In this document: positions 553 to 17,430 of the stretch, one piece after another
How the letters are laid out: the number at the start of each line of letters is the position of its first letter
Numbering within the stretch: the first letter of the stretch is position 1
Assembly (NCBI GenBank): GCA_964448715.1
Contig: CAYUWX010000001.1
Span: 1 to 62,454, forward strand
Direction of reading: 5' to 3'
Source of the DNA: Candidatus Woesearchaeota archaeon
Lineage (GTDB): Archaea > Nanobdellota > Nanobdellia > SCGC-AAA011-G17 > PNOQ01
Length of the DNA: 62,454 nt
Translations under genes and position numbers: made by a program
Notes under the pieces: model-generated
Told to the model about the DNA's origin: nothing
Database searches by the model: none
The model's input: only the letters and a program-made list of their open reading frames with translations

Positions 553-3500
553 TCAATCAAACCATTTACCTAATCCTTCTTGTTTTTCAGGATCCTTACC
601 AAAAACACTTTCTATTCTTTTTTGAGTTAATTCTAAAGTTTGTTGTAAATACATTGGCAAATTATATTTTTCAGCTAAATCTAAAGAAGGTTTCAAATAT
701 TTAATAACAGATCCTTCTGAAATTGTAAAAATTAATTTTCCCCCACATTTTTGACATTTTCCAAGTAAGGGTGGTCTTCTATACTTAGAATTACATCCGA
801 CACATCTAAATTGTTGCATACTAAATTTTCTTAAATTTCCTTTTATATCTCTAATAAAATGTTTTTCTATAATTAATCTTGCAACATCTGAAGTATCAAC
901 TGCATTCACTTTTTCTGCAATAGCCATTTGACCCAATACTTTTTCTTGCATAGTAGGTAATAATTTATAACTACTATATCTCACTCCATCATTAATATTA
1001 GAAGTATCGTGAGTAAAACCATATCCTTCAAATTGTTTTTCTTTATTTAAATTATCATTTAATTGTTCAATTTTTATATCCCATGGCATTTTATTTTTTT
1101 CACAAGATTCATAAAATTCTAAGGGATATTCCCAAACAGTATCCATATCAAATACCATATCATCAACTTCACTAGGAATCAGATTAGTAGTTAAAACTAA
1201 ACATGCATCTTGAGTAGATCCTCTATGAGACGGTAAAAATTTTCTTGAAAAATTTAAAAATCCATCCATTAAAAGCATTACTCCATTTTCATCTCCATCG
1301 CAATCTCTTCTTTGTGCAGAATGCCATAGTGGATGGGCATAACAACCTTGAGTTTTTGAAAAACCTATAATTCTTCCTATTATTCCTGCAGAAGTGTGAG
1401 GGGCTAAACTTATTATTAATTGTCCAACTAAATCTTCTTTTGTTTTAATGTTATAAAAAGGATCTAAACCATAAAATTTAGTCAATAATTCGTCTATAAA
1501 TTTAGAAATTTTAAAAAAAACTATATCTGCACCTTCTTCACTCGCTTCATCACATGAAGGAAGAATTACATCTTGAGGTTTTAACTCTAATATTTGATTT
1601 TCATCATTTAATTCATTATCATAAATATCTAATAAATAACCTATTTCTTTTAATTTTTTTATACTAGTTCCTACTTCAATTGGTTTAAAATGAGTAATGG
1701 GTAATTCTGTCATATCATATCGTATTGTACCATCTTTACTAACAAAAACATCATATGAAGATCTTAAAATTGCTTTTGTTAAATTTTCGGGAGTATGATC
1801 TGCATTTGAAGTTTCTTTTACTCCTTTAATTAAAGGAGGTAAAGTATTTATCTCTAATTTATTTTTTGAATCATTAATATAATCTAAAATATTTATACTT
1901 AACAAACTATACTCTTCTGATTTTTCTCTTATTGTTTTAGAATTACATTTATGACATTTAGGATAAACACTTATAATATCACATTTTTCACATTTATATG
2001 TTGGAAAATTAGAATTTATTTTACCATATTCCATAGCTGATTGAAATGATTTTAATCTTCCTCCTTCATTTCCAACGGGAAATAATCCATGTGGGCTCCC
2101 TGTAAGTTTTCTCATTTTTGCCTTTTCTGGTCTACCCATTCTTGCACCTATAAAGATTCCAGATTTATCTTTAATTTCTAATTCTGAAAATTTATTTATA
2201 GTTTTTAAAATATTTTTTCCTTCTTTAACTCCATTTACTAATTCAGATAAATTAATATTTTTTTTATAAAATCCTAATGCTACCATAAATCCTATTGCCC
2301 ACTCTTTTTCAATAGTAATATGTTCTTTAGAAACAATTTTATGGGGTACGCCTAATTCTTCTAGTATTGTTTTTAATTCTATATTTTTTTCCTTAGATTC
2401 ATAAGTTAAAGGCAAAATTATCTTATAATATTCATCTTTTTTAATTACAGCTTTATTTAACCAATCTAATAATGCTAAAAATTTAATTTCATTTAAATCA
2501 TTCCAATGGAATGTGAATTTAGGATGTAAGGGGATGTTTAATTTATCTGAAATTTTAAAAGAATCTAATATACTTAAATTATATTTTAAAGGATTATTAA
2601 ATAATTTTTTTAAAATTGGTAATTTAACATCTACTAATTTTGATAATTCTTCAGGAGAATTACATTTTTCTTTTAATTGAACAAACCACCATTCTTCACA
2701 ATATCCTGGGGCAACTAATACATGTGCTCTATTAAAAAAATCTCCATAAGGTATTAAAATATCTCCTAAAAATATTATTTCTTTAATATAATTTTTTATT
2801 TCTTCATAATTTTCATTAGTTACAAATAATACATTTCCATTTTTCAATTTAACAATTGGTCCTTCTATACTATCACATGCACCTAATGCAGTTCCTTTAC
2901 CTGGCCTTTCCATTTTTAATTGAGTACCTATTGCAATAAAATCATTAAGAATTTTCATGGTTAAAGGATGAATTGAGGTAGAACTTAATCCAGTATTTCT
3001 ACCTCTACCATATCTTAATCTAAATCCTCCTTTTCTCATAGGATGAGTTAAAACTGGTCTACCTGCAACTAAATCTTTAATAAAAGTTTGATCTTTTTTT
3101 ATTAATTCATCATCTGAAGATGAATCTTTAGACTTAATTTTCTTTTGTAATTTTACAAATTTTTCTAAAAACTTCCAATCTTTTAAATCAAAATCCTTTC
3201 CCCATTTATCGACTTGCTTAAATACTTTAGGTGCTTTTTGTGCTAAACATTCTGCAACAACTAAACAAAAACCATTTCTAATTCTATTAGTTCCTATCCT
3301 ATCAAGATCTTTATAATTTGATACTTCTTTATCTTCTGAATAAGGTCCATCAATTTGGACAGGTAAATGAGAAACCATATATTTAGTCTCTTCTTCCGAA
3401 GGATAATATTGTAAATTTGTAATCCTATCATGATAATCATTAACTTCAGTAATAGATCTATTAATTTCATTTTCAGTAGGATCATATACTTCATATCCCA

Positions 3501-4038
3501 TTTCTTTTCTAATATAATCTGCAATTAATACGCTCACTGAAGCACCTGTACCTCCTGCACTTCTTATTGGTCCAGCATATTTTAATGCAAAATATTCTTT
3601 TCCATCTTTTTTTCTTTTTCTAATATCTACTCCTATAAATCCTTCTAAAGGACTTGCTACAACTCCTACTGTTACATATGCAAAACCTGTTCTTATACCT
3701 ATATCTATTGCTTCATTTTTAGAATCAAATTTACAAAATTTCTCTTGGGCAACTTCTAATGCAATAGATAATGCCACTCTCCAATCTAATTTACCATATT
3801 CTTTTTCAAACTCCATTATTCTTTGAGAAATACCTTTTCCAACTATTTGAGGTGAAGCTACAGAAATAAGTCCCTCTACTCTTTCGGCCATATTTTTAGC
3901 CAACATAATTTCAACATTTTCAGTAGGATCATATCCTTTAGATCTAGCTTGTTTTGCAAGATTATATCCTTTAATTACTTCTTGATCTATTTTTTCAAAA
4001 TATGATTGTATATCTTTACTCTTTTCCATCTTTTTCAT
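553..4038 (-). CDS. polC: DNA polymerase II (PolD) large subunit DP2
   Basis: 1161-aa ORF with continuous similarity by eye to archaeal DP2, including Cys clusters (CEKCDIISVYPKCHKC, FRCVGCNSKYRRPPLLGKCQKCGG). It overlaps the upstream DP1 gene by 23 nt. The length gives no sign of an intein. Confidence 0.9.
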   Translation of the reverse strand: MKKMEKSKDIQSYFEKIDQEVIKGYNLAKQARSKGYDPTENVEIMLAKNMAERVEGLISVASPQIVGKGISQRIMEFEKEYGKLDWRVALSIALEVAQEKFCKFDSKNEAIDIGIRTGFAYVTVGVVASPLEGFIGVDIRKRKKDGKEYFALKYAGPIRSAGGTGASVSVLIADYIRKEMGYEVYDPTENEINRSITEVNDYHDRITNLQYYPSEEETKYMVSHLPVQIDGPYSEDKEVSNYKDLDRIGTNRIRNGFCLVVAECLAQKAPKVFKQVDKWGKDFDLKDWKFLEKFVKLQKKIKSKDSSSDDELIKKDQTFIKDLVAGRPVLTHPMRKGGFRLRYGRGRNTGLSSTSIHPLTMKILNDFIAIGTQLKMERPGKGTALGACDSIEGPIVKLKNGNVLFVTNENYEEIKNYIKEIIFLGDILIPYGDFFNRAHVLVAPGYCEEWWFVQLKEKCNSPEELSKLVDVKLPILKKLFNNPLKYNLSILDSFKISDKLNIPLHPKFTFHWNDLNEIKFLALLDWLNKAVIKKDEYYKIILPLTYESKEKNIELKTILEELGVPHKIVSKEHITIEKEWAIGFMVALGFYKKNINLSELVNGVKEGKNILKTINKFSELEIKDKSGIFIGARMGRPEKAKMRKLTGSPHGLFPVGNEGGRLKSFQSAMEYGKINSNFPTYKCEKCDIISVYPKCHKCNSKTIREKSEEYSLLSINILDYINDSKNKLEINTLPPLIKGVKETSNADHTPENLTKAILRSSYDVFVSKDGTIRYDMTELPITHFKPIEVGTSIKKLKEIGYLLDIYDNELNDENQILELKPQDVILPSCDEASEEGADIVFFKISKFIDELLTKFYGLDPFYNIKTKEDLVGQLIISLAPHTSAGIIGRIIGFSKTQGCYAHPLWHSAQRRDCDGDENGVMLLMDGFLNFSRKFLPSHRGSTQDACLVLTTNLIPSEVDDMVFDMDTVWEYPLEFYESCEKNKMPWDIKIEQLNDNLNKEKQFEGYGFTHDTSNINDGVRYSSYKLLPTMQEKVLGQMAIAEKVNAVDTSDVARLIIEKHFIRDIKGNLRKFSMQQFRCVGCNSKYRRPPLLGKCQKCGGKLIFTISEGSVIKYLKPSLDLAEKYNLPMYLQQTLELTQKRIESVFGKDPEKQEGLGKWFD

Positions 4039-5539
4039 AAAATTTCAATATTTTTGATTCTCTTGTTTTTAAATTTATTATAGGAACTCTTCCTGGCTCA
4101 GGTTTATGACCAACTTTTAACTGAAAAGGAGTTATAGATTGCCAACAACTTCCTGCAACTTTAGTTACTTTTCCATATTGGGTAATATTTGATTTATGTA
4201 TATGGCCAGATATAAAAAAATCAGGAACAATATCTATAATTAAATTATCTTCTTCTTTATTTGGAATGAATAGAGTTGAACCATGTGTTGGTGCTAAATG
4301 TCTTTTTTGTAATAAAAATTTCATAACTAAATTAGTTCTATCTGAAATAGTTTCACCAGAAAATCTTATACTTTCTACATTTTCAGAATAATTATCATAA
4401 CTATAACCATGATATAATAATACATTAAATCCTTCAAAATCTTTTGTTTTTGAAATATTAACATAAGAAGGGTTACTAACTAAAATTACATTTTCCATAT
4501 CATATAAATCATTAATCATATCTCTTCCTAGACTCGGTTGAGGTTCTGCAATTCTAACCGCATCATGATTTCCTGGACAAATAATAATATTAATGTCTTT
4601 TCTTATAATTTTCATTAATTCTATTACTTTTTTATATTGTAATTTTATATCAGGTATATTTTGTTCATCATCTTGATTGGGATAAATACCAACTCCATCT
4701 ACTAAATCACCTACAATAAATACATATTTTATTTTTTTTGCTACTTCTTTTTGTTCTTTTGTTCCGCTTTTAAGATTTAACCAATCTATAAATTTTAAAA
4801 ATTCGGATTCTAAAAATAATTCAGAACCAACATGAAGATCAGATAAAATTGCAATATATTCTTCTTTTGAAGATTTTTTTATATCTGTATTTTTTAGTAT
4901 ATCTGGGAAAAAAATATCATCAACAAAAATAATTTTATCACCATTAACTCCTTTAATACCAATAACTTCATCTAAAACTACATCTTTAGCTTTTTCAAAA
5001 AGTTCTTTTTTCGAATTATTAATTAAAATTGGAATATTTCCAGTATTATCTTCAATTATCAAAAGTAAATTATCATTTTTAGTATATCTTTTTTCAAAAA
5101 CAATACCTATTGTAGAAATTTTTTCCTTATCTTTTTTAGATAAAATTCTATTTATTGACAAAGGTGCCAATAATTCTGTTCTAGATTGTAATAATTTTCT
5201 TAATTGTTCATATCTTCTTGTATAGTGGGACGTGAAATCATTAACTTCTAACTTTTGAGATTTTTTATCAAAAGATTTTACAATTTCTACATTTGATTTA
5301 GTGTTTAAAACATTAATTTCAGGTTCAATTAATTGTTTTTTTTCAGTATTTTGTTTATGTTCAGAAATTAATTTATCTAATAATTTTTTATCAAACATTA
5401 GCATTTCACTAGAATTATTTTTTTCTAAATATTTATCTAAAATTTCAAATTCTAGTTTATTATTTTCTAAAAATGAAGAATCAATTAAATATCCTCTATT
5501 TAAAATTAATTTAATAATTTGTTTTATATGTTCAACCAT
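4016..5539 (-). CDS. polB: DNA polymerase II (PolD) small subunit DP1
   Basis: 507 aa with calcineurin-like phosphoesterase motifs (DLHVGS, GDLVDGVG, PGNHDA, GHIH) and an OB-like middle region. It sits in an operon between cdc6 and DP2. Confidence 0.9.
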   Translation of the reverse strand: MVEHIKQIIKLILNRGYLIDSSFLENNKLEFEILDKYLEKNNSSEMLMFDKKLLDKLISEHKQNTEKKQLIEPEINVLNTKSNVEIVKSFDKKSQKLEVNDFTSHYTRRYEQLRKLLQSRTELLAPLSINRILSKKDKEKISTIGIVFEKRYTKNDNLLLIIEDNTGNIPILINNSKKELFEKAKDVVLDEVIGIKGVNGDKIIFVDDIFFPDILKNTDIKKSSKEEYIAILSDLHVGSELFLESEFLKFIDWLNLKSGTKEQKEVAKKIKYVFIVGDLVDGVGIYPNQDDEQNIPDIKLQYKKVIELMKIIRKDINIIICPGNHDAVRIAEPQPSLGRDMINDLYDMENVILVSNPSYVNISKTKDFEGFNVLLYHGYSYDNYSENVESIRFSGETISDRTNLVMKFLLQKRHLAPTHGSTLFIPNKEEDNLIIDIVPDFFISGHIHKSNITQYGKVTKVAGSCWQSITPFQLKVGHKPEPGRVPIINLKTRESKILKFYEKDGKE

Positions 5540-6732
5540 TTTAGAAGATCTCCTTTTAATACAGGAATTTCTGTATCAGGAATAGTCATTTGTATTTCTC
5601 TAGTTCTGCCATATCTTCCTTTACTGATAACTTTTGCATTAATAACTCCTAACATATCTAATTCTGCAATTAAATCAGACATTCTTCTTTGAGTTAAAGG
5701 TTTTAATCCTATTTGATTTGACAAAATTTTATACAAATTATATACATCTCCTGTAAATATTTTATTAGAATTAGATTCATATAAATTAAAAGTAGCTAAT
5801 AAAACTAATTGAGATTGTTTAGGTAATGTACTTACTACATCAGATATTAAATCTCTTTCAATTTTTTCTTCGGCAATATCAATATGATCTATTAATAATT
5901 TATCGGAATTATTTCTTTCCGCCAATTCTCCTGCAACTCTTAATAAATCTAATGCACGTCTAGCATCTCCATGTTCTCTTGCAGCTAATGCTGCACATTT
6001 TTCTATAGCTCCTTGTTCTAATACTTTATCTTTAAATGCATTTTTAGATCTTTCATGTAAAATATCTTGAAGTTGTAATGCATTATATGATGAAAAATTG
6101 ATATCTTCTTCAGTTAAAGAAGATTTAACTCTAGGATCTATATCATTTGCGAATCTTAAATCATTAGATATACCTACAAAAGTTATTTGAGTATTTATTA
6201 ATTCTGAATTTAATCTTGTTAAATTATATAATATTTCATCTCCTGCTTTTTTTACTAATTGATCTATTTCATCAAGAATAAGTATAATATTTTTTTCTTC
6301 ATTATCTATACTTTCGATAAAAATTCTATAAATTTCATCGGTAGGTAATCCTGTTACAGGAACATTCTTACCAAAATTTCTTGCCAATGTTGCAATGAGT
6401 CTATATTCCGTATCTGCAACTTTTTTTAATTTACAATTCAAATAAAATATTTCTAAAGATACTTTTTTCTTTTTTGCAATTTTTTTTAATCTATCAACTA
6501 CATGTATAACTGATAAAGTTTTCCCTGTTCCAGTTTTACCATATAAAAAAAGATTAGATGGCTTTTCTCCTCTCAATGAAGGTGCAAGCATACTTGCTAT
6601 TTCTTTAATTTCTTTTTCCCTATGAGGAATAGTATCAGGAGTATAACTAGATTGCAAAACTTTTTTATCTTTAAATAATCCATCCTTAGTTAAATAATCT
6701 TCAAAAAATTCATTTATATCTGATTTTACCAT
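5524..6732 (-). CDS. cdc6: Orc1/Cdc6 replication initiator
   Basis: 402 aa with AAA+ Walker A (GKTGTGKT), Walker B (LILDEID) and a C-terminal winged helix. It lies immediately next to the ORB-containing intergenic region. Confidence 0.9.
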   Translation of the reverse strand: MVKSDINEFFEDYLTKDGLFKDKKVLQSSYTPDTIPHREKEIKEIASMLAPSLRGEKPSNLFLYGKTGTGKTLSVIHVVDRLKKIAKKKKVSLEIFYLNCKLKKVADTEYRLIATLARNFGKNVPVTGLPTDEIYRIFIESIDNEEKNIILILDEIDQLVKKAGDEILYNLTRLNSELINTQITFVGISNDLRFANDIDPRVKSSLTEEDINFSSYNALQLQDILHERSKNAFKDKVLEQGAIEKCAALAAREHGDARRALDLLRVAGELAERNNSDKLLIDHIDIAEEKIERDLISDVVSTLPKQSQLVLLATFNLYESNSNKIFTGDVYNLYKILSNQIGLKPLTQRRMSDLIAELDMLGVINAKVISKGRYGRTREIQMTIPDTEIPVLKGDLLKWLNI

Positions 6733-6799
6733 CTTTCAAATAGTTTTGATTCAAACAAATATAAATATTACTATTCTAAAAAATAGAGACAGAGACCTC

Positions 6800-6814
6800 T
6801 ATTTCATTTGGAGA
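6800..6814 (+). repeat. ORB-like box 1 (TATTTCATTTGGAGA)
   Basis: Matches box 2 at 13 of 15 positions. It is preceded by a C/T-rich string (agagacctc), which reads as a G-string on the other strand, as in canonical ORB elements. Confidence 0.6.
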
Positions 6815-6848
6815 TAATTTTTTAGAAAAACAGGTTATCTCTTCCTTT

Positions 6849-6863
6849 TATTTCATATGGAAA
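6849..6863 (+). repeat. ORB-like box 2 (TATTTCATATGGAAA)
   Basis: Internal dyad TTTC-ATATG-GAAA, 49 bp from box 1, preceded by ctcttcc. Confidence 0.6.
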
Positions 6864-7088
6864 ACATATATATTATATTATATTATTATATAATATATAA
6901 TATATATAATAATAAATCTTATAAATAAAATTTTAATTTAAAATTCAAATTTCATAAATACTAGATTTCTAATAATTAAATTTTTAAGAATTAAGAATTT
7001 AATTTAATTCTATAGAAGATAACAAAATAAAATTAACTTACAAAAAATAAATTATTAAAAACTCCAAAAGAAATTTATTATAAAAATT

Positions 7089-7103
7089 ATTCCATCAGAA
7101 ATA
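7089..7103 (-). repeat. ORB-like box 3, inverted (reverse complement TATTTCTGATGGAAT)
   Basis: Matches box 2 at 12 of 15 positions, in opposite orientation on the far side of the A/T-only tract. It is flanked by ggtgagaggg, the G-string equivalent. Confidence 0.55.
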
Positions 7104-7168
7104 AAGGTGAGAGGGTGTATCTAAAATAAAACAAACAATTTATATATTAATTAATATATAATATTAAT

Positions 7169-7477
7169 ATGGATATATTATCTATAATATTAATAGCAGG
7201 ATTAAGTTTATTCGCATTAGAATTAATTAAACATATGTTTACAAAAACAATTTTAAAAGTTATAGTTATATCTATAGTGGGATTAATAATATTTTTTACA
7301 GTAATTAATAGTTTAGATAAAGAAAATGTGATAGATAATGATAATAAATATATTCAAGCAGGTGCAGTAATATCTCAAAATTTTGAAAATCAACCTCTCT
7401 GGGAAGATATAATGAAAAAATTTAAATCATTGATAATAAATATAGAAAGTAAAATTTCAGAAAAAATAGGAGAATAG
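7169..7477 (+). CDS. Hypothetical small membrane protein
   Basis: 102 aa with two predicted hydrophobic helices at the N-terminus. No recognisable family. Confidence 0.4.
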   Translation: MDILSIILIAGLSLFALELIKHMFTKTILKVIVISIVGLIIFFTVINSLDKENVIDNDNKYIQAGAVISQNFENQPLWEDIMKKFKSLIINIESKISEKIGE

Positions 7478-7536: not shown

Positions 7537-7800
7537 ATGACAAATAATGATAAAAAATATTCAAAACAAATTCTAGGTAAAACTATTGTAACAAAAACAG
7601 GGAAAAGATTTGGTGAATTAGGAAATATTTTATTTGATACTAAGACAGGTGAATTATTACAATTAGAATTAAAAAATACAACTTCTTTAGCAAACGGATT
7701 AGATCTAGAAAGAACTGAAAATGGACAATTATTAATACCTTATAGTGCAGTAATTGCAATAGGTGATTTTATAGTTGTTGCAGAAGAAGATATTATTTAA
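7537..7800 (+). CDS. PRC-barrel domain protein
   Basis: 87 aa. LGKTIVTKTGKRFGELGNILFD...TGELLQLEL...LIPYSAVIAIGDFIVV matches the PRC-barrel pattern. Confidence 0.6.
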   Translation: MTNNDKKYSKQILGKTIVTKTGKRFGELGNILFDTKTGELLQLELKNTTSLANGLDLERTENGQLLIPYSAVIAIGDFIVVAEEDII

Positions 7801-13495: not shown

Positions 13496-13969
13496 ATGTT
13501 TATTAGAAAGAAAAAAATAAGTGGAAAAGAATATGCTTATTTAATTAATAATAGATATAATAAGAGAAAAAAACAATCAAGACAGAAGTCAACAAAATAT
13601 TTAGGAAAAGTTATTAAATTATCAAACTTCGACAATCCTACACATGCTTCGACAGTCAGACAATCAATAATTAATGAATTTTCACAAAGAGGATTTAAAT
13701 TAAATAATAATAAATTAATCAATAAAGATATAATGATTGATTTAGAAAATTTAACTGTAACATGTAAGAATAAATCTATTTGTTTAGAATTAAACGAAGG
13801 ATTCTTATGTGATCATACTCTCATAAATTTAATCAATTTTAATGATGAAGATTTAAATCAAAAAGAAATGGTTCACAAATTTGCAGATGCATTTGTATCT
13901 GCAGGTATAAATTTACATCATGACTCTTTTATAGAATTATTTAAAAATAGATTAAACCCTCAAATTTAA
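13496..13969 (+). CDS. Hypothetical protein with a basic N-terminal beta-hairpin-like motif
   Basis: 157 aa. The N-terminus MFIRKKKISGKEYAYLINNRYNKRKKQSRQKSTKYLGKV resembles the N-termini of IS1634-type transposases and some archaeal element proteins. The gene carries two CGACA boxes (13626-13666). Confidence 0.45.
   Translation: MFIRKKKISGKEYAYLINNRYNKRKKQSRQKSTKYLGKVIKLSNFDNPTHASTVRQSIINEFSQRGFKLNNNKLINKDIMIDLENLTVTCKNKSICLELNEGFLCDHTLINLINFNDEDLNQKEMVHKFADAFVSAGINLHHDSFIELFKNRLNPQI
13626..13666 (+). repeat. Composite CGACA-box motif, copy 1 (ACTTCGACAATCCT + 8 nt + CTTCGACAGTCAGAC)
   Basis: Both half-motifs recur exactly at 14038-14065. Confidence 0.8.
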
Positions 13970-14013
13970 CCATATAATGCCTTATTCTCTCATAATTTAA
14001 GGATTTAATAATA

Positions 14014-14844
14014 GTGCCTAATTCTAAAAAACTCTCACTTCGACAATCCTTCGACAGTCAGACGACACAAAATAGACACTTCGACAACATAAAATCTTAT
14101 ATAATGAATATGATTACTCTTTTTGAATTAAAATTGGTGAATTTAGTATCAATAAAGGGTTCTTTTAAGAGAATTAAGGAAGAGATTAATAACTCAAATG
14201 CTAAAATAACGTCATTAGAAGACCAAATAAGGAAAATTAACTATAAATTAGATACATTATTAGAACAAAAAAACAAAAATTTATCTAAAAAATCGCTTGA
14301 TTTTAGTAAATTTGAAGGTTTAGAGGCCCCTAATGTCCAAATTAATAAAAGTTCCACAGGAAATGAAGGGGTCCTACGCCGACAATCAGACGACAAAGAG
14401 ACGACAATCAGACGACAAAGAGACGACAATCAGACAATAAAAAGCCGACAATACGACAATAAAACTATAAAAAAATTAGATAATTTTTATGATATTAAAA
14501 CATACAAAAAAGAACTAGAATCTAGGTTTTTAAGCCTTACAGATGCACAATTTAGGGTTTTTATGGCTATATATAGAATAGAAGAAAGATCAAATAATTC
14601 AGTAACTTATGCGGAAATAGCGTCGGAATTAACATTATCTCAAAGTTCTATAAGAGATTATGTTAGTGATTTATTATTAAGAAAAATTCCACTCACCAAA
14701 CATAGTTCTCCAAATAGGAAAGTGTTCTTATCTGTCCAAAAAGAGTTCAAAAACTTAAATATTTTAGAAAATTTACATGCATTACGAGAAAAAGATCTCT
14801 CACAAACTAGATTATCTGGTCAATTACATAATTTCTTGCACTAA
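14014..14844 (+). CDS. Coiled-coil / winged-helix DNA-binding protein, paralogue A
   Basis: 276 aa with a GTG start in the track; the internal Met at MNMITLF is an alternative. It has an N-terminal coiled-coil-like segment, a low-complexity linker encoded by 22-bp DNA repeats, and a C-terminal wHTH (LTDAQFRVFMAIYRIEE...VTYAEIASELTLSQSSIRDYVSDLLLRKIPL). Confidence 0.6.
   Translation: MPNSKKLSLRQSFDSQTTQNRHFDNIKSYIMNMITLFELKLVNLVSIKGSFKRIKEEINNSNAKITSLEDQIRKINYKLDTLLEQKNKNLSKKSLDFSKFEGLEAPNVQINKSSTGNEGVLRRQSDDKETTIRRQRDDNQTIKSRQYDNKTIKKLDNFYDIKTYKKELESRFLSLTDAQFRVFMAIYRIEERSNNSVTYAEIASELTLSQSSIRDYVSDLLLRKIPLTKHSSPNRKVFLSVQKEFKNLNILENLHALREKDLSQTRLSGQLHNFLH
14038..14089 (+). repeat. CGACA-box cluster at the 5' end of paralogue A (composite motif copy 2 plus two further boxes)
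   Basis: ACTTCGACAATCC-TTCGACAGTCAGA-CGACAC...ACTTCGACAAC. CGACA cores at 14042, 14053 and 14064 are spaced 11 bp apart; a fourth lies at 14083. Confidence 0.8.
14380..14467 (+). repeat. Tandem 22-bp repeat x4 (two exact, two degenerate), with an 11-bp sub-period
   Basis: Copies 14380-14401 and 14402-14423 are both CGACAATCAGACGACAAAGAGA. Copy 3 is CGACAATCAGACAATAAAAAGC and copy 4 is CGACAATACGACAATAAAACTA. Confidence 0.9.
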
Positions 14845-14874: not shown

Positions 14875-15495
14875 TTAACTCTCACTTTTTATTTTTTTTA
14901 ATGGTTTCTTTGTATATTTAATTAATATTTCTCTCTTTTTTATATCATTTATAAAAAATCTTTTCTTACCATTACTTTCACTTTTTTCTTCTAAGAGTCC
15001 AGGAATTTTCTTTTTTATATTATTTATTTGCCCTCTCACCGTAGATTCATCTTTTCCAAGTATTCTAGATAGATCTTCATAACTAAGCACTATATCTGTA
15101 TTTAACAAACTCCATACTATTGTTCTTTCCATTGCAGTTAATCTAAATAATTCTTTCTCCATATCTGTTTGGACAGATATTTCTTGTTGTTTGGACACAC
15201 TGTCCGTTTGTTTTGGACAAACAACTGTTTGTATTTGTTTGGACAGCTGTTTGGACACATCTTCTTGAGGTGTTTGTTCTACAAGATTTAACATAAACTC
15301 TTCAATAATTTTTAATCTAGAATCCATATCTTCTAAAATTTCACCATGAGTAGTTTTTGTTTCATCCAAATGTTTAATCCATTCTCCGACACCACTCATA
15401 TCTTCTTTTATTTTAGAAAAAGAATCATTTAAAGTATCATGTAAATGAGAAAACTTTTTTTCAAGATCACCTTTTTTTCTAAAAAAATTAAACAT
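14875..15495 (-). CDS. Coiled-coil / winged-helix DNA-binding protein, paralogue B
   Basis: 206 aa with the same architecture as paralogue A: coiled-coil-like N-terminus, a Q/K/S-rich linker encoded by TTGGACA boxes, and a wHTH (LTAMERTIVWSLLNTDIVLSYEDLSRILGKDESTVRGQINNIKKKIPGL). It shares the S-x-[IV]R...KIP[LG] pattern with A. Confidence 0.6.
   Translation of the reverse strand: MFNFFRKKGDLEKKFSHLHDTLNDSFSKIKEDMSGVGEWIKHLDETKTTHGEILEDMDSRLKIIEEFMLNLVEQTPQEDVSKQLSKQIQTVVCPKQTDSVSKQQEISVQTDMEKELFRLTAMERTIVWSLLNTDIVLSYEDLSRILGKDESTVRGQINNIKKKIPGLLEEKSESNGKKRFFINDIKKREILIKYTKKPLKKIKSES
15166..15257 (+). repeat. Array of five direct TTGGACA boxes plus one inverted copy
   Basis: Cores start at 15169, 15191 and 15213 (22-bp spacing), then at 15239 and 15251. 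An inverted TGTCC at 15201-15205 forms the palindrome GGACACACTGTCC. Confidence 0.9.
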
Positions 15496-15849: not shown

Positions 15850-16113
15850 ATGGTACATGAAATACACACTTTAGAAAATAGAACACAAATAATTGAAGAT
15901 AAAGTATGGCATTATACTTGTAATTCTCCAAGTTTAAAAATATTAAATAAATATGGTATTGATCCAATAGGTGACAAATATAATTGTCATGACCATAGGG
16001 AAGTTTTATTAATTCCACTAAAAGTATATCATAAATTAGGATTAGTTCCTACAAATGACATGAATGTATTAACCATACAAAGCGAATCTCTTTTAAAAAA
16101 ATTAGATTCCTAA
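15850..16113 (+). CDS. Hypothetical protein
   Basis: 87 aa with no recognisable family. Preferred over the overlapping antisense ORF 15797-16018 only because it is co-oriented with neighbours and has less low-complexity content. Confidence 0.3.
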   Translation: MVHEIHTLENRTQIIEDKVWHYTCNSPSLKILNKYGIDPIGDKYNCHDHREVLLIPLKVYHKLGLVPTNDMNVLTIQSESLLKKLDS

Positions 16114-16135
16114 AACCTTTAATCAAAACTTAAAA
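16112..16135 (+). repeat. Single copy of the TTTAATCAAAACT unit plus flank, abutting the ATG of ORF 16136
   Basis: AAAACCTTTAATCAAAACTTAAAA matches 17407-17430 at 23 of 24 positions. The 18-mer TTTAATCAAAACTTAAAA is exact. Confidence 0.8.
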
Positions 16136-16447
16136 ATGAAAAAATCAACTATAATATACTCTAAAAAAGATTTTTTTTCTAAAAAAGATTTAGAAAAAAT
16201 AATCAATTTTTCAGAAGAAAAAGAAAAGATAGAAATAATTAATGATAAAAGAGGATTCATCTATTTATATAGAAATAGTCAAACAAAAAGAAAGATCAAA
16301 CCAACTTATGTTTCAAATTTATCAAAATATAATTTTTCTGAGGATAATATCAAAAATTTATTAAATCAAAAAAATATCAATTATGTTAGAATATTTACTA
16401 AACCAAATGATTTAGAAATTAGTGCAGGAAATTATTGCAATTTTTAA
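16136..16447 (+). CDS. Hypothetical protein
   Basis: 103 aa, lysine-rich, no recognisable family. It lies immediately upstream of the recombinase. Confidence 0.4.
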   Translation: MKKSTIIYSKKDFFSKKDLEKIINFSEEKEKIEIINDKRGFIYLYRNSQTKRKIKPTYVSNLSKYNFSEDNIKNLLNQKNINYVRIFTKPNDLEISAGNYCNF

Positions 16448-16470
16448 TTTTTAGAAAGATTTTTATAGAA

Positions 16471-16505
16471 TTATTCCAATAAGGTTAACTATTATTCCAA
16501 TAAGG
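16471..16505 (+). promoter_or_regulatory. Two exact copies of the 14-mer TTATTCCAATAAGG, 21 bp apart, upstream of the recombinase gene
   Basis: Copies at 16471-16484 and 16492-16505. Each contains the dyad TTATT-CC-AATAA. They lie 64-98 nt upstream of the recombinase ATG. Confidence 0.6.
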
Positions 16506-16568
16506 GAACCCTTTTTGGAAGTCATTAAACCTACAAATTAGGGCAATACTGGCCAAAACAAGCAAAAA

Positions 16569-17351
16569 ATGGGTGATACTAAACTTAAAACTGCAATCTA
16601 TGTAAGAGTTTCTACAGATGAGCAAGCAAAAGAAGGAATTTCTATGGATGCACAGATTCAAAAGTGCAAATCTTATTGTGATGCAAGAGATTGGGAAGCA
16701 ACTCAAATATATACAGATGCGGGACAATCTGCAGGAACAATGAATAGGCCTGCAGTTCAACAATTAATTAAAGATTTAGATCACGGAAAATTTCAAAATA
16801 TATTAGTTTACAAATTTGATAGATTTTCTAGGAATCTTAGAGATCTTATTTCATTTTTAGATAATATAAAAAAGAAAGGAATTAATTTTACTTCTGTAAC
16901 TGAAAATATAGATACAACAACCGCAATGGGTGAAGCATTTTTTCAAATGATAGGTGTTTTTGCACAATTAGAGAGAGGAATGGTAAAAGAGAGAGTTAAA
17001 TTAGCTTTCGATAAGAAGGCAGAAGATGGAGGGGCACTCAATAGGCCGCCATTTGGATATAGATTTAGGCAAAAAAAGATGATACCTCATGAAAATGAGT
17101 CAGAAATAGTTAAAGATATTTTTGAAATGAGGTCAAGAGGGATAAATTATAAAGATATTTCAGATAAATTTTCAATACCTATATCAACATTATATAACAT
17201 AATTAAAAATCCTGTTTACGTCGGTAAAATAAGATATAAGGGTAAATTGTATAAGGGGGCACATAAGGCATTAATCAAAGAAGAAATTTTTTCAAAAATA
17301 AATCCTAGTCATTTAGGGGAACAAAAACTTTTAATCAAAGATAATAAATAG
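16569..17351 (+). CDS. Serine recombinase (resolvase/invertase catalytic domain plus a short recombinase-domain/HTH tail)
   Basis: AIYVRVSTDEQ (catalytic Ser context), GISMDAQ, FDRFSRN, and a C-terminal PPFGYRF...IVKDIFEMRSRGINYKDISDKF...IIKNPVYVGK. At 260 aa it lacks the zinc-ribbon/coiled-coil of large serine integrases. Confidence 0.85.
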   Translation: MGDTKLKTAIYVRVSTDEQAKEGISMDAQIQKCKSYCDARDWEATQIYTDAGQSAGTMNRPAVQQLIKDLDHGKFQNILVYKFDRFSRNLRDLISFLDNIKKKGINFTSVTENIDTTTAMGEAFFQMIGVFAQLERGMVKERVKLAFDKKAEDGGALNRPPFGYRFRQKKMIPHENESEIVKDIFEMRSRGINYKDISDKFSIPISTLYNIIKNPVYVGKIRYKGKLYKGAHKALIKEEIFSKINPSHLGEQKLLIKDNK

Positions 17352-17364
17352 TATGCCTAAATAA

Positions 17365-17430
17365 TTTAATCAAAAATAAAAATATTTTTAATCAAAACTT
17401 TTAATCAAAACTTTTAATCAAAACTTAAAA
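17365..17430 (+). repeat. Tandem 13-bp repeat TTTAATCAAAACT (three exact copies plus degenerate copies)
   Basis: Exact copies at 17387-17399, 17400-17412 and 17413-17425. A degenerate copy lies at 17365-17377, and a partial copy lies inside the recombinase 3' end at 17330-17340. Confidence 0.9.

Follow-up and report, generated by a model that had tools for sequence, protein, structure and literature searches.

A predicted origin recognition box and phased direct repeats, conserved as DNA, within a winged-helix gene of DPANN archaea

The window analyzed here, the whole stretch of 62,454 nucleotides of Candidatus Woesearchaeota contig CAYUWX010000001.1 (assembly GCA_964448715.1), carries a 22-bp tandem repeat at 14380-14467, inside a gene for a winged-helix protein that we call gene B (14110-14844, + strand). 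An earlier note, made from the sequence alone, had drawn attention to this repeat. We find that it is kept by selection on the DNA itself. At roughly even odds (a probability of about 0.5), we read it as the 3' part of a composite protein-binding DNA element in the linker-coding part of gene B, an origin-proximal cluster that would bind the initiator Orc1/Cdc6, protein B, and protein C, the product of a convergent paralogous gene. Every binding assignment in this reading, and the regulatory outcome, is what we infer from the sequences described below.

The repeat is as the earlier note had described it. The unit CGACAATCAGACGACAAAGAGA stands in two exact copies (14380-14401 and 14402-14423) followed by the decayed copies CGACAATCAGACAATAAAAAGC and CGACAATACGACAATAAAACTA, and Tandem Repeats Finder, the check that had been proposed, reports a period of 22 (3.3-3.9 copies, 90-92% matches, score 107-118) as well as a period of 11 (5.1 copies). 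The array thus described (14380-14467, + strand) has about eight units at 11-bp phasing with a CGACA core: five of the form CGACAA[TA][CG]AGA, one decayed unit, and then CGACAATA and CGACAATAAAA. Within the open reading frame (ORF) the 22-bp units start at codon positions 1, 2, 3 and 1, so the repeat is indeed translated in all three frames; the 11-bp half-units start at positions 1, 3, 2, 1 and 3. Helically phased tandem direct repeats of 11 and 22 bp on a single strand are what iterons consist of, and the proposed likeness to iterons holds in that the array is of the iteron or origin-repeat kind and abuts a near-consensus origin recognition box (ORB). The window, at 26.7% G+C, has ten copies of CGACAA, every one on the + strand and every one within 13630-14460. 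Dinucleotide shuffles (mean 4.4, maximum 10) show the total in itself to be unremarkable; it is the clustering that is extreme, with about 0.04 copies expected per 850 bp per strand. The codons involved are rare for the genome, CGA making up 1.6% of Arg, GAC 7.6% of Asp and ACG 2.9% of Thr codons in long ORFs.

The core and its phasing are kept in homologous loci (numbered here with the prefix L) L001-L005, L011, L012 and L091, and CGACA words occupy the same relative positions, on the same strand, in all five of the Woesearchaeota loci from metagenome-assembled genomes. L091, the nearest relative at 71% identity, has as many units as the window, but its units are homogenized differently, with CGACAAAGAGA in four exact copies. 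Core and phasing are therefore under selection while lineage-specific slippage or conversion also acts, and in this sense the homogenization that had been suspected is real and lineage-specific. Between the window and other members of its clade the length differs by 33 bp, or 11 codons, which keeps the frame. The suggestion that the repeat might be a contingency locus, switching the winged helix on and off by frameshift, is not supported, since none of 90 loci is frameshifted and length differences among them preserve the frame. Nor does the locus have the makeup of a ParB/parS-type centromere: the gene B words are direct repeats, not a palindrome, and no ParA-like domain was found among 20 neighboring ORFs scanned or in the gene lists of L006-L010.

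Directly 5' of the array, at 14351-14372 on the + strand, lies the ORB, GTTCCACAGGAAATGAAGGGGT, which encodes S-T-G-N-E-G-V. It is identical at 20 of 22 positions to ORB3 of 'Ca. Methanomassiliicoccus intestinalis' (GTTCCAGTGGAAATGAAGGGGT), and both differences fall in the variable center of the dyad. By the published definition (Matsunaga et al. 2007, PMC1904270), a mini-ORB is a dyad whose TTCC and GAA cores do not vary; such a dyad, TTCCACAGGAAAT, is present at 14352, and in a logo of 53 relatives TTCC and GGAAAT are invariant, the dyad center alone being variable. At the consensus distance 3' of the dyad stands a G-string, GAAGGGGT, resembling that of the archaeal ORB consensus CTTCCAGTGGAAACGAAAGGGGT (PMC4153887). 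We scanned the window with a position weight matrix built only from ten published Methanomassiliicoccales ORBs, that is, from archaea other than the host (maximum 41.8 bits). The top score in 62 kb was at 14351 (+), with 35.2 of 41.8 bits; the second was 14.1, and shuffled windows gave no more than 14.7. The gene B element was likewise the top match (30-40 bits) in all nine of the other loci tested, and it is present in all 53 non-redundant relatives. A search allowing up to three mismatches to the ORB found the gene B copy alone; a strict ORB pattern found this copy and two at the probable replication origin, at 6844 (-) and 7090 (+), which surfaced by pattern or weight matrix only. By these sequence measures the frozen block is an archaeal origin recognition box and a predicted Orc1/Cdc6 site.

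The embedded ORBs are single or direct repeats in coding sequence and have no adjacent AT-rich DNA unwinding element. That is not the layout of a canonical origin, and the embedded ORB is therefore best described as ORB-type by sequence and as lying outside the canonical origin core. The window's clade has one full ORB and the deep family two, and the accompanying words match the mini-ORB at about 8-10 of 13 positions, without the GAA core. In the distant relatives L031, L033, L052, L063, L064, L067 and L074 the ORB and a run of GACA words are duplicated in frame, giving up to three ORB copies, and the peptide of these duplicated linkers reads GNEGV...TDRQTDRQTD...STGNEGV.

That it is the DNA word and not the peptide that is conserved, as the earlier note proposed, is best seen in codon usage. 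For codon counts we used 46 non-identical gene B relatives from a metagenome scan, at about 30% protein identity. Within the block encoding GNEGV...TDRQ the synonymous sites are frozen: TCC in 44 of 46, GGA in 46 of 46, AAT in 44 of 46, GGG in 45 of 46 and GTT in 45 of 46, followed by ACA (42/42), GAC (37/37) and CAG (33/40). An equally conserved peptide of the same genes, SSIRDY, is synonymously saturated, with its Ser encoded by TCT (14), AGC (13), AGT (13) and TCA (5), and in the region of this motif Gly uses four codons, Leu six, and Asp both GAT (32) and GAC (14). In a gene-wide profile (n=65), third-position constraint is limited to the ORB/GACA block. The freezing is not a sampling artifact, because L001-L010, which were found through other peptides or exact protein look-up, carry identical nucleotides in the block. 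Members with an altered peptide (GNGGV, RNRGV, GNAGV) retain the ORB pattern in their DNA. Many relatives have the ORB element twice, about 50 bp apart and in different frames (encoding VPQEIEG and STGNEGV), in the form TTCCACAGGAAAT[AG][GA]AGGGGTT. There is no sign of an overlapping gene, since none of the other frames, on either strand, is consistently open or starts with ATG.

The linker peptide is itself conserved in homologues, and in distant relatives (Pacearchaeota, Nanoarchaeota) it reads S-T-G-N-E-G-V-P-T-D-R-Q-T-D-R-Q-T-D, with an in-frame TDRQ unit of 4 amino acids or 12 bp. The earlier note had held that a conserved peptide repeat with a period of 3n in homologues would speak against constraint on the DNA. 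Such a repeat formally exists, but it fails to discriminate because the synonymous sites within it are frozen, and the DNA-level reading stands.

Outside the window's clade the short words take other forms. In the deep family, words 5' of the ORB have the consensus T-y-C-r-ACA-s-ATAAT, and words 3' of it merge into a GACA run. By comparison, the GACA run of the window's clade is remodeled to CGACA at 11-bp phasing, which accounts for the invariant R, D and T columns at +0, +4 and +8 codons.

Copies of the word also stand in front of gene B. The mechanical ORF call begins at a GTG at 14014, which is probably the wrong start; an identical database protein begins at the ATG at 14110, and homologues align with the TTG at 14134. 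With the start at 14110 or 14134, words at 14041-14087 are upstream of gene B. This segment (14036-14092, + strand) has four (T)TCGACA words, at 14041, 14052 and 14063 (an 11-bp spacing) and at 14082, directly 5' of a TATA-like box, TTATATAA (14097-14104, + strand), which, going by the usual layout of archaeal promoters, we regard as the putative promoter of gene B. The upstream block is near-identical in L001-L005, where the four phased words run straight into CATAAATTATTATAAAT about 26 nt before the start codon; this block would be the TATA box of a leaderless-type transcript. In all members of the window's clade the words adjoin the TATA box of gene B. Some 20 bp 5' of the promoter words, a further block, ATAGTGCCTAAT (14011-22 in the window, about 5870-5885 in L001-L005), is kept in all clade members and is probably non-coding.

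Protein B has a long N-terminal helix (a coiled coil), a disordered linker and a C-terminal MarR-type winged helix. In its AlphaFold model the long helix spans residues 4-60, residues 61-125 are disordered (predicted local distance difference test below 50), and a confident winged helix follows at 126-243; the disordered segment matches the region encoded by the words. The closest solved folds to the winged helix are MarR-type dimeric regulators, not the winged-helix domain of Cdc6 or Cdt1. Pfam searches with B and C returned only sub-threshold, weak and generic helix-turn-helix (HTH) matches. Grouped at 90% identity, the gene B family amounts to at least 1276 clusters, every one of which bears a DPANN name and no more than a generic annotation. 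No relatives of B were found in viral-contig and plasmid collections. Plasmid iterons accompany a Rep protein on a plasmid or viral replicon, and what we see here is instead a MarR-like fold with weak HTH matches on syntenic core chromosome.

A second array lies in the neighboring gene C (14875-15495, - strand), which has the same succession of helix, linker and HTH. A BLASTP comparison of B with C finds nothing, whereas profile-profile comparison detects their paralogy over the HTH domain (hhalign probability 95%, E 2e-8). The two genes are convergent in 47 of 47 loci. The gene C array (15166-15257, - strand) consists of five copies of TGTCCAAA(C) at spacings of 22, 22, 26 and 12 bp, read in three frames (SKQ / PKQ / VQT). 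Among 112 xVQT units family-wide, x is variously A, G, P, D, S, L or V, but its codon ends in T in 109 of them; CAA encodes Gln in all 112, and Val never uses GTA or GTG. A third base that stays fixed under a variable residue, together with this codon bias, indicates that the conserved object in gene C is the DNA word TGTYCAAACA. GTCCAAA words are located in the convergent gene in all five of the loci from metagenome-assembled genomes. Both arrays, in B and in C, encode the disordered linker between the coiled coil and the MarR-type winged helix. The gene C word TGTCCAAA also occurs on the + strand inside gene B, at 14334 and 14733; the copy at 14334 is absent from L091 and may be there by chance.

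The locus is near what is probably the chromosomal replication origin, oriC. At the left of the window, all on the - strand, lie the gene for the large subunit of DNA polymerase D (PolD) (dp2, 553-4038, PolC_DP2), that for the small subunit (dp1, 4016-5539) and, followed by dp1, orc1/cdc6 (5524-6732; Pfam Cdc6_C 1e-27, Cdc6_lid 2e-23). An AT-rich intergenic region at 6.7-7.8 kb comes after orc1/cdc6. In the likely oriC (6793-7110), ORB-like elements at 6793-6814 (-), 6842-6863 (-) and 7089-7110 (+) flank an AT-rich, repeat-laden stretch at about 6866-7060, and the strict-pattern ORBs at 6844 (-) and 7090 (+) are inverted about this stretch beside orc1, which is the canonical oriC layout. We therefore regard the region at 6733-7170 as the probable chromosomal oriC. 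The gene order oriC-cdc6-dp1-dp2 is the same as in Pyrococcus. A gene for a small PRC-barrel protein adjoins oriC in the window (7538-7798) and in L006 (3251-3505) and may be a conserved origin neighbor. Beside the leftmost ORB-like element, on the strand opposite to it, there is a single instance of a GACA-type run, AGAGACAGAGAC (6786-6797); B- or C-type words are not enriched in oriC itself, nor did the oriC regions of other loci show an enrichment of GACA-type words.

The embedded ORB is 7.3 kb from oriC in the window, with about 6 kb of housekeeping genes between oriC and B in the window's clade. In 15 other loci the distance from the gene pair to orc1/oriC is shorter, at 1-2 kb: in 15 short-flank loci the 2.5-4 kb of flank upstream of gene B includes a divergent orc1, and in at least ten loci an oriC-type ORB lies 1.1-2.3 kb upstream of gene B and is co-oriented with it. 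By this linkage the order orc1, oriC, small genes, B and, convergent with it, C is ancestral. A site a few kb from orc1 and oriC that is conserved across related genomes is what would be expected of an extra-origin ORB cluster. In five Woesearchaeota loci from metagenome-assembled genomes, synteny extends from LonB and ArgRS across the gene trio of this locus and farther on, and the serine-recombinase stretch alone varies. We also considered a mobile element and rejected it, the region being syntenic core chromosome with no relatives in the viral-contig or plasmid collections.

These observations can be assembled into a model, which we offer as a prediction. The composite element would consist of the ORB (14351-14372) followed by about eight CGACA direct repeats on one face of the helix, with four more abutting the TATA box. 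Orc1/Cdc6 would occupy the embedded ORB; B would bind the CGACA/GACA array, both within its gene and at its own promoter, and so regulate itself; and C would bind its own TGTYCAAACA array. B and C would be dimeric coiled-coil, winged-helix DNA binders, and their genes stand beside the chromosomal origin across the DPANN archaea. The resulting nucleoprotein cluster could feed back on B and C transcription, through promoter occlusion and an intragenic roadblock, and could hold or titrate Orc1 beside oriC, in a manner resembling the Thermococcales dp1 ORB cluster or Haloarcula oriC2D.

The main uncertainty is which protein binds the short words. The earlier note suggested that the winged helix of this protein binds the array, and self-binding by B is plausible, because the words abut the B TATA box and the linker-coding part of the paralogue has a word of its own at the corresponding place. 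This promoter position and the paralogue-specific word favor B and C as the binders. Orc1/Cdc6, however, suggests itself just as readily, at the least for the ORB. Several observations weigh against our reading. The promoter words are confined to the window's clade, and none were seen in L006, L007 or L009. The embedded ORBs are direct repeats and are not inverted about an unwinding element, and the genome's own oriC ORBs score far below the embedded one (6-11 versus 35.2 bits). There is a resemblance between the short words and the ORB's 5' half, and in L007, L019, L060 and L085 full ORBs have TTCGACAG in place of TTCCACAG; Orc1 alone might therefore bind everything in gene B. Finally, the SSIRDY recognition helix of B is near-invariant, as against words that vary by lineage (TCGACA, CCAACA, CCAGCA, GACA runs), and an invariant target such as the ORB would fit it better than the words do. 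Half-ORB resemblance and the mismatch between an invariant helix and variable words favor Orc1 as the word binder. On inspection, the Q/E residue before SSIRDY does not correlate cleanly with the type of word.

The most serious competitor follows from these points, and we give it about one chance in five: the ORB and all of the gene B words would be Orc1/Cdc6 sites, a full ORB with degenerate mini-ORBs, B would be a mere host gene, and the array would titrate or position Orc1. In its favor, TTC-ACA is common to the words and the ORB's 5' half, and some full ORBs have a word where that half would be; all of the words are co-oriented with the ORB, and a mini-ORB plus ORB3 inside dp1 provides a precedent. 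However, the cores reported as invariant by Matsunaga et al., TTCC and GAA, are missing from the words, the promoter-abutting copies resemble an autoregulatory operator, and the TGTYCAAACA array of gene C is not ORB-like and yet is equally constrained at the homologous linker position.

It is improbable that the B/C locus is itself a second site of initiation, with B and C as origin-specific accessory or initiator factors, much as oriC3 of Sulfolobus is specified by WhiP. In every locus tested the top-scoring ORB sits in gene B, and the pairing of replicator with initiator gene is the rule in archaea, but the locus has neither an inverted ORB pair nor an AT-rich unwinding element, the gap between B and C is 30 bp in the window and 36-540 bp elsewhere, a canonical oriC is only 1-7 kb away, the fold of B is MarR-like and not Cdc6- or Cdt1-like, and relatives on plasmids or viral contigs were not found.

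An element acting in the mRNA is less probable again. Here the frozen nucleotides would control translation or stability as a hairpin (AUUUCC-ACA-GGAAAU), an unstructured CA-rich protein-binding tract or a small RNA target; both genes carry the words in sense orientation, a hairpin of 6 bp could arise from the palindrome, and the gene C array folds better than shuffles (z = -3.3), which it does because its word is near-palindromic. Such a function is unlikely, because the module has no Rfam match, either at the gathering threshold or at E <= 1, the gene B array folds worse than shuffles (z = +1.5), and the same words occur upstream of the TATA box; the block, moreover, matches an established DNA site at 20 of 22 positions, G-string included, and that site recurs at the genome's oriC. 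Least probable, and largely refuted, is a polar T/D/R/Q-rich peptide repeat that grew by replication slippage and has no function as DNA (or, in a variant, acts as a contingency switch), which would suit the in-frame TDRQ unit of the deep family and the lineage-specific homogenization seen between the window and L091, but not the same synonymous codons fixed across about 50 divergent lineages, the constant third base under a changing residue in gene C, the reading of the element in different frames in different copies, or the lack of frameshifted loci.

Two neighboring features deserve mention. Gene A (13496-13969), upstream of gene B, encodes a protein of 157 amino acids that is restricted to the window's Woesearchaeota clade, has a basic N-terminus (MFIRKKKISGKEYAYL...NKRKKQSRQKSTKYLGKV) and gave only a weak sub-threshold match in Pfam. 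It contains two TTCGACA words 20 bp apart in two frames (13628-13664, + strand; words at 13630 and 13650), kept in five of six clade members. Farther along the window, past gene C, the sequence CTTTTAATCAAAAC(TTAAAA) occurs at 16118, with five or six more copies at 17330-17430, among them three exact copies of a 13-bp unit at 17386-17426. These copies bracket an ORF of 103 amino acids (16136-16447) and a serine recombinase gene (16569-17351). The stretch (16096-17430) is absent from most syntenic loci, and may be a small integrated element with direct repeats of the kind found at attachment sites.

Our literature searches turned up no account of the B/C gene pair, nor of any DPANN regulator gene with an ORB inside it. 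A 2026 preprint places a winged-HTH regulator, which may be B or C, among the single-copy core genes of Nanobdellota. The earlier note had dealt with the repeat and its gene; the ORB, the promoter copies, the gene C array and the origin context lay outside it. The components are of known kinds, namely extra-origin ORB clusters and in-gene iterons, and taken together they point to an undescribed replication-control module. What sets it apart is synonymous freezing across a superphylum, in two reading frames, and a paralogous pair of genes each with its own array; a near-consensus Orc1 box that scores better than those of oriC itself sits inside a conserved regulator gene, with two paralogue-specific arrays nearby. 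Replication control in DPANN is essentially unknown because most of these archaea are uncultivated symbionts with tiny genomes, and the locus offers a concrete and testable handle on it. It is also a clean natural case of dual coding, in which 20-50 nucleotides are constrained as DNA while being translated, in differing frames, into a tolerant disordered linker, and it cautions that what look like "conserved peptide motifs", GNEGV and TDRQ among them, can be the mere reflection of elements in the DNA. In practical terms, DPANN genomes could be oriented by using the embedded ORB and the B/C pair to mark the origin.

More tentatively, and with the odds somewhat against it, B and C may be unrecognized DPANN-wide origin factors whose genes double as binding platforms, the linker-coding part of each being an array of sites for its own product, and thereby form a self-encoded replication-control hub that links the availability of Orc1 to the expression of B and C. 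If so, the locus would be an archaeal counterpart of datA/SeqA-type control, with the linker-coding part of B carrying the highest-affinity Orc1 box of the genome, and would be the clearest prokaryotic chromosomal cis-regulatory module overprinted on coding sequence and preserved superphylum-wide.

Several known systems resemble this locus in part. Near bacterial origins parS, a single 16-bp palindrome, is found inside parB/spo0J. Like parS, the gene B array is a candidate site for an origin-proximal HTH protein inside that protein's own coding sequence, and is conserved as DNA; unlike it, the B words are direct repeats, and a ParA partner was not seen among the scanned neighbors. Plasmid initiators of the RepA_N family (pAD1, pSK41, pLS32) have in-gene iterons in the central, linker-coding part of the rep gene. 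In both cases tandem direct repeats of about 11-22 bp occupy the stretch that codes for a poorly conserved central linker, in the gene for their own presumed binding protein. However, B is not a Rep homologue, its gene is chromosomal, plasmid and viral-contig collections yielded none of its relatives, and the element includes a host-initiator site, the ORB.

Among archaeal systems, the Sulfolobus protein UBP is a non-initiator DNA-binding protein that recognizes an ORB-associated 11-bp motif, ucm, and modulates origin function (Dhanaraju et al. 2025, PMC12141716). A similar role at a short ORB-associated motif is what we propose for B and C. UBP is an abundant nucleoid protein of 111 amino acids with more than 300 sites, and ucm is within the unwinding element (PMC12141716), whereas the B and C words occur only at their own locus within the 62 kb examined. 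In Haloarcula hispanica, oriC2D is an essential non-origin ORB cluster that restrains oriC2; it is intergenic and has 11 ORBs (Wu et al. 2014, PMC3936714). Like oriC2D and datA of Escherichia coli, which lack origin activity and are proposed to titrate the initiator, the gene B element is a cluster of initiator sites beside but outside the origin; unlike oriC2D, it has one or two full ORBs, embedded in a gene and accompanied by arrays that probably belong to other proteins.

A further parallel is found in Pyrococcus and Thermococcus, where a cluster of ORBs and mini-ORBs lies inside dp1, a few kb from oriC and orc1, is conserved across an order, and binds Cdc6/Orc1 both in the cell and in vitro (Matsunaga et al. 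2007, PMC1904270). There, as here, an ORB and shorter related repeats lie within protein-coding sequence near oriC and orc1. The host gene in our case, however, encodes a DNA-binding protein and not a polymerase subunit, and lies to the opposite side of oriC; its short repeats differ from canonical mini-ORBs, and a paralogous neighbor carries a second, unrelated word. Binding at gene B is predicted from sequence, and the conservation spans a superphylum, with synonymous sites frozen in two frames.

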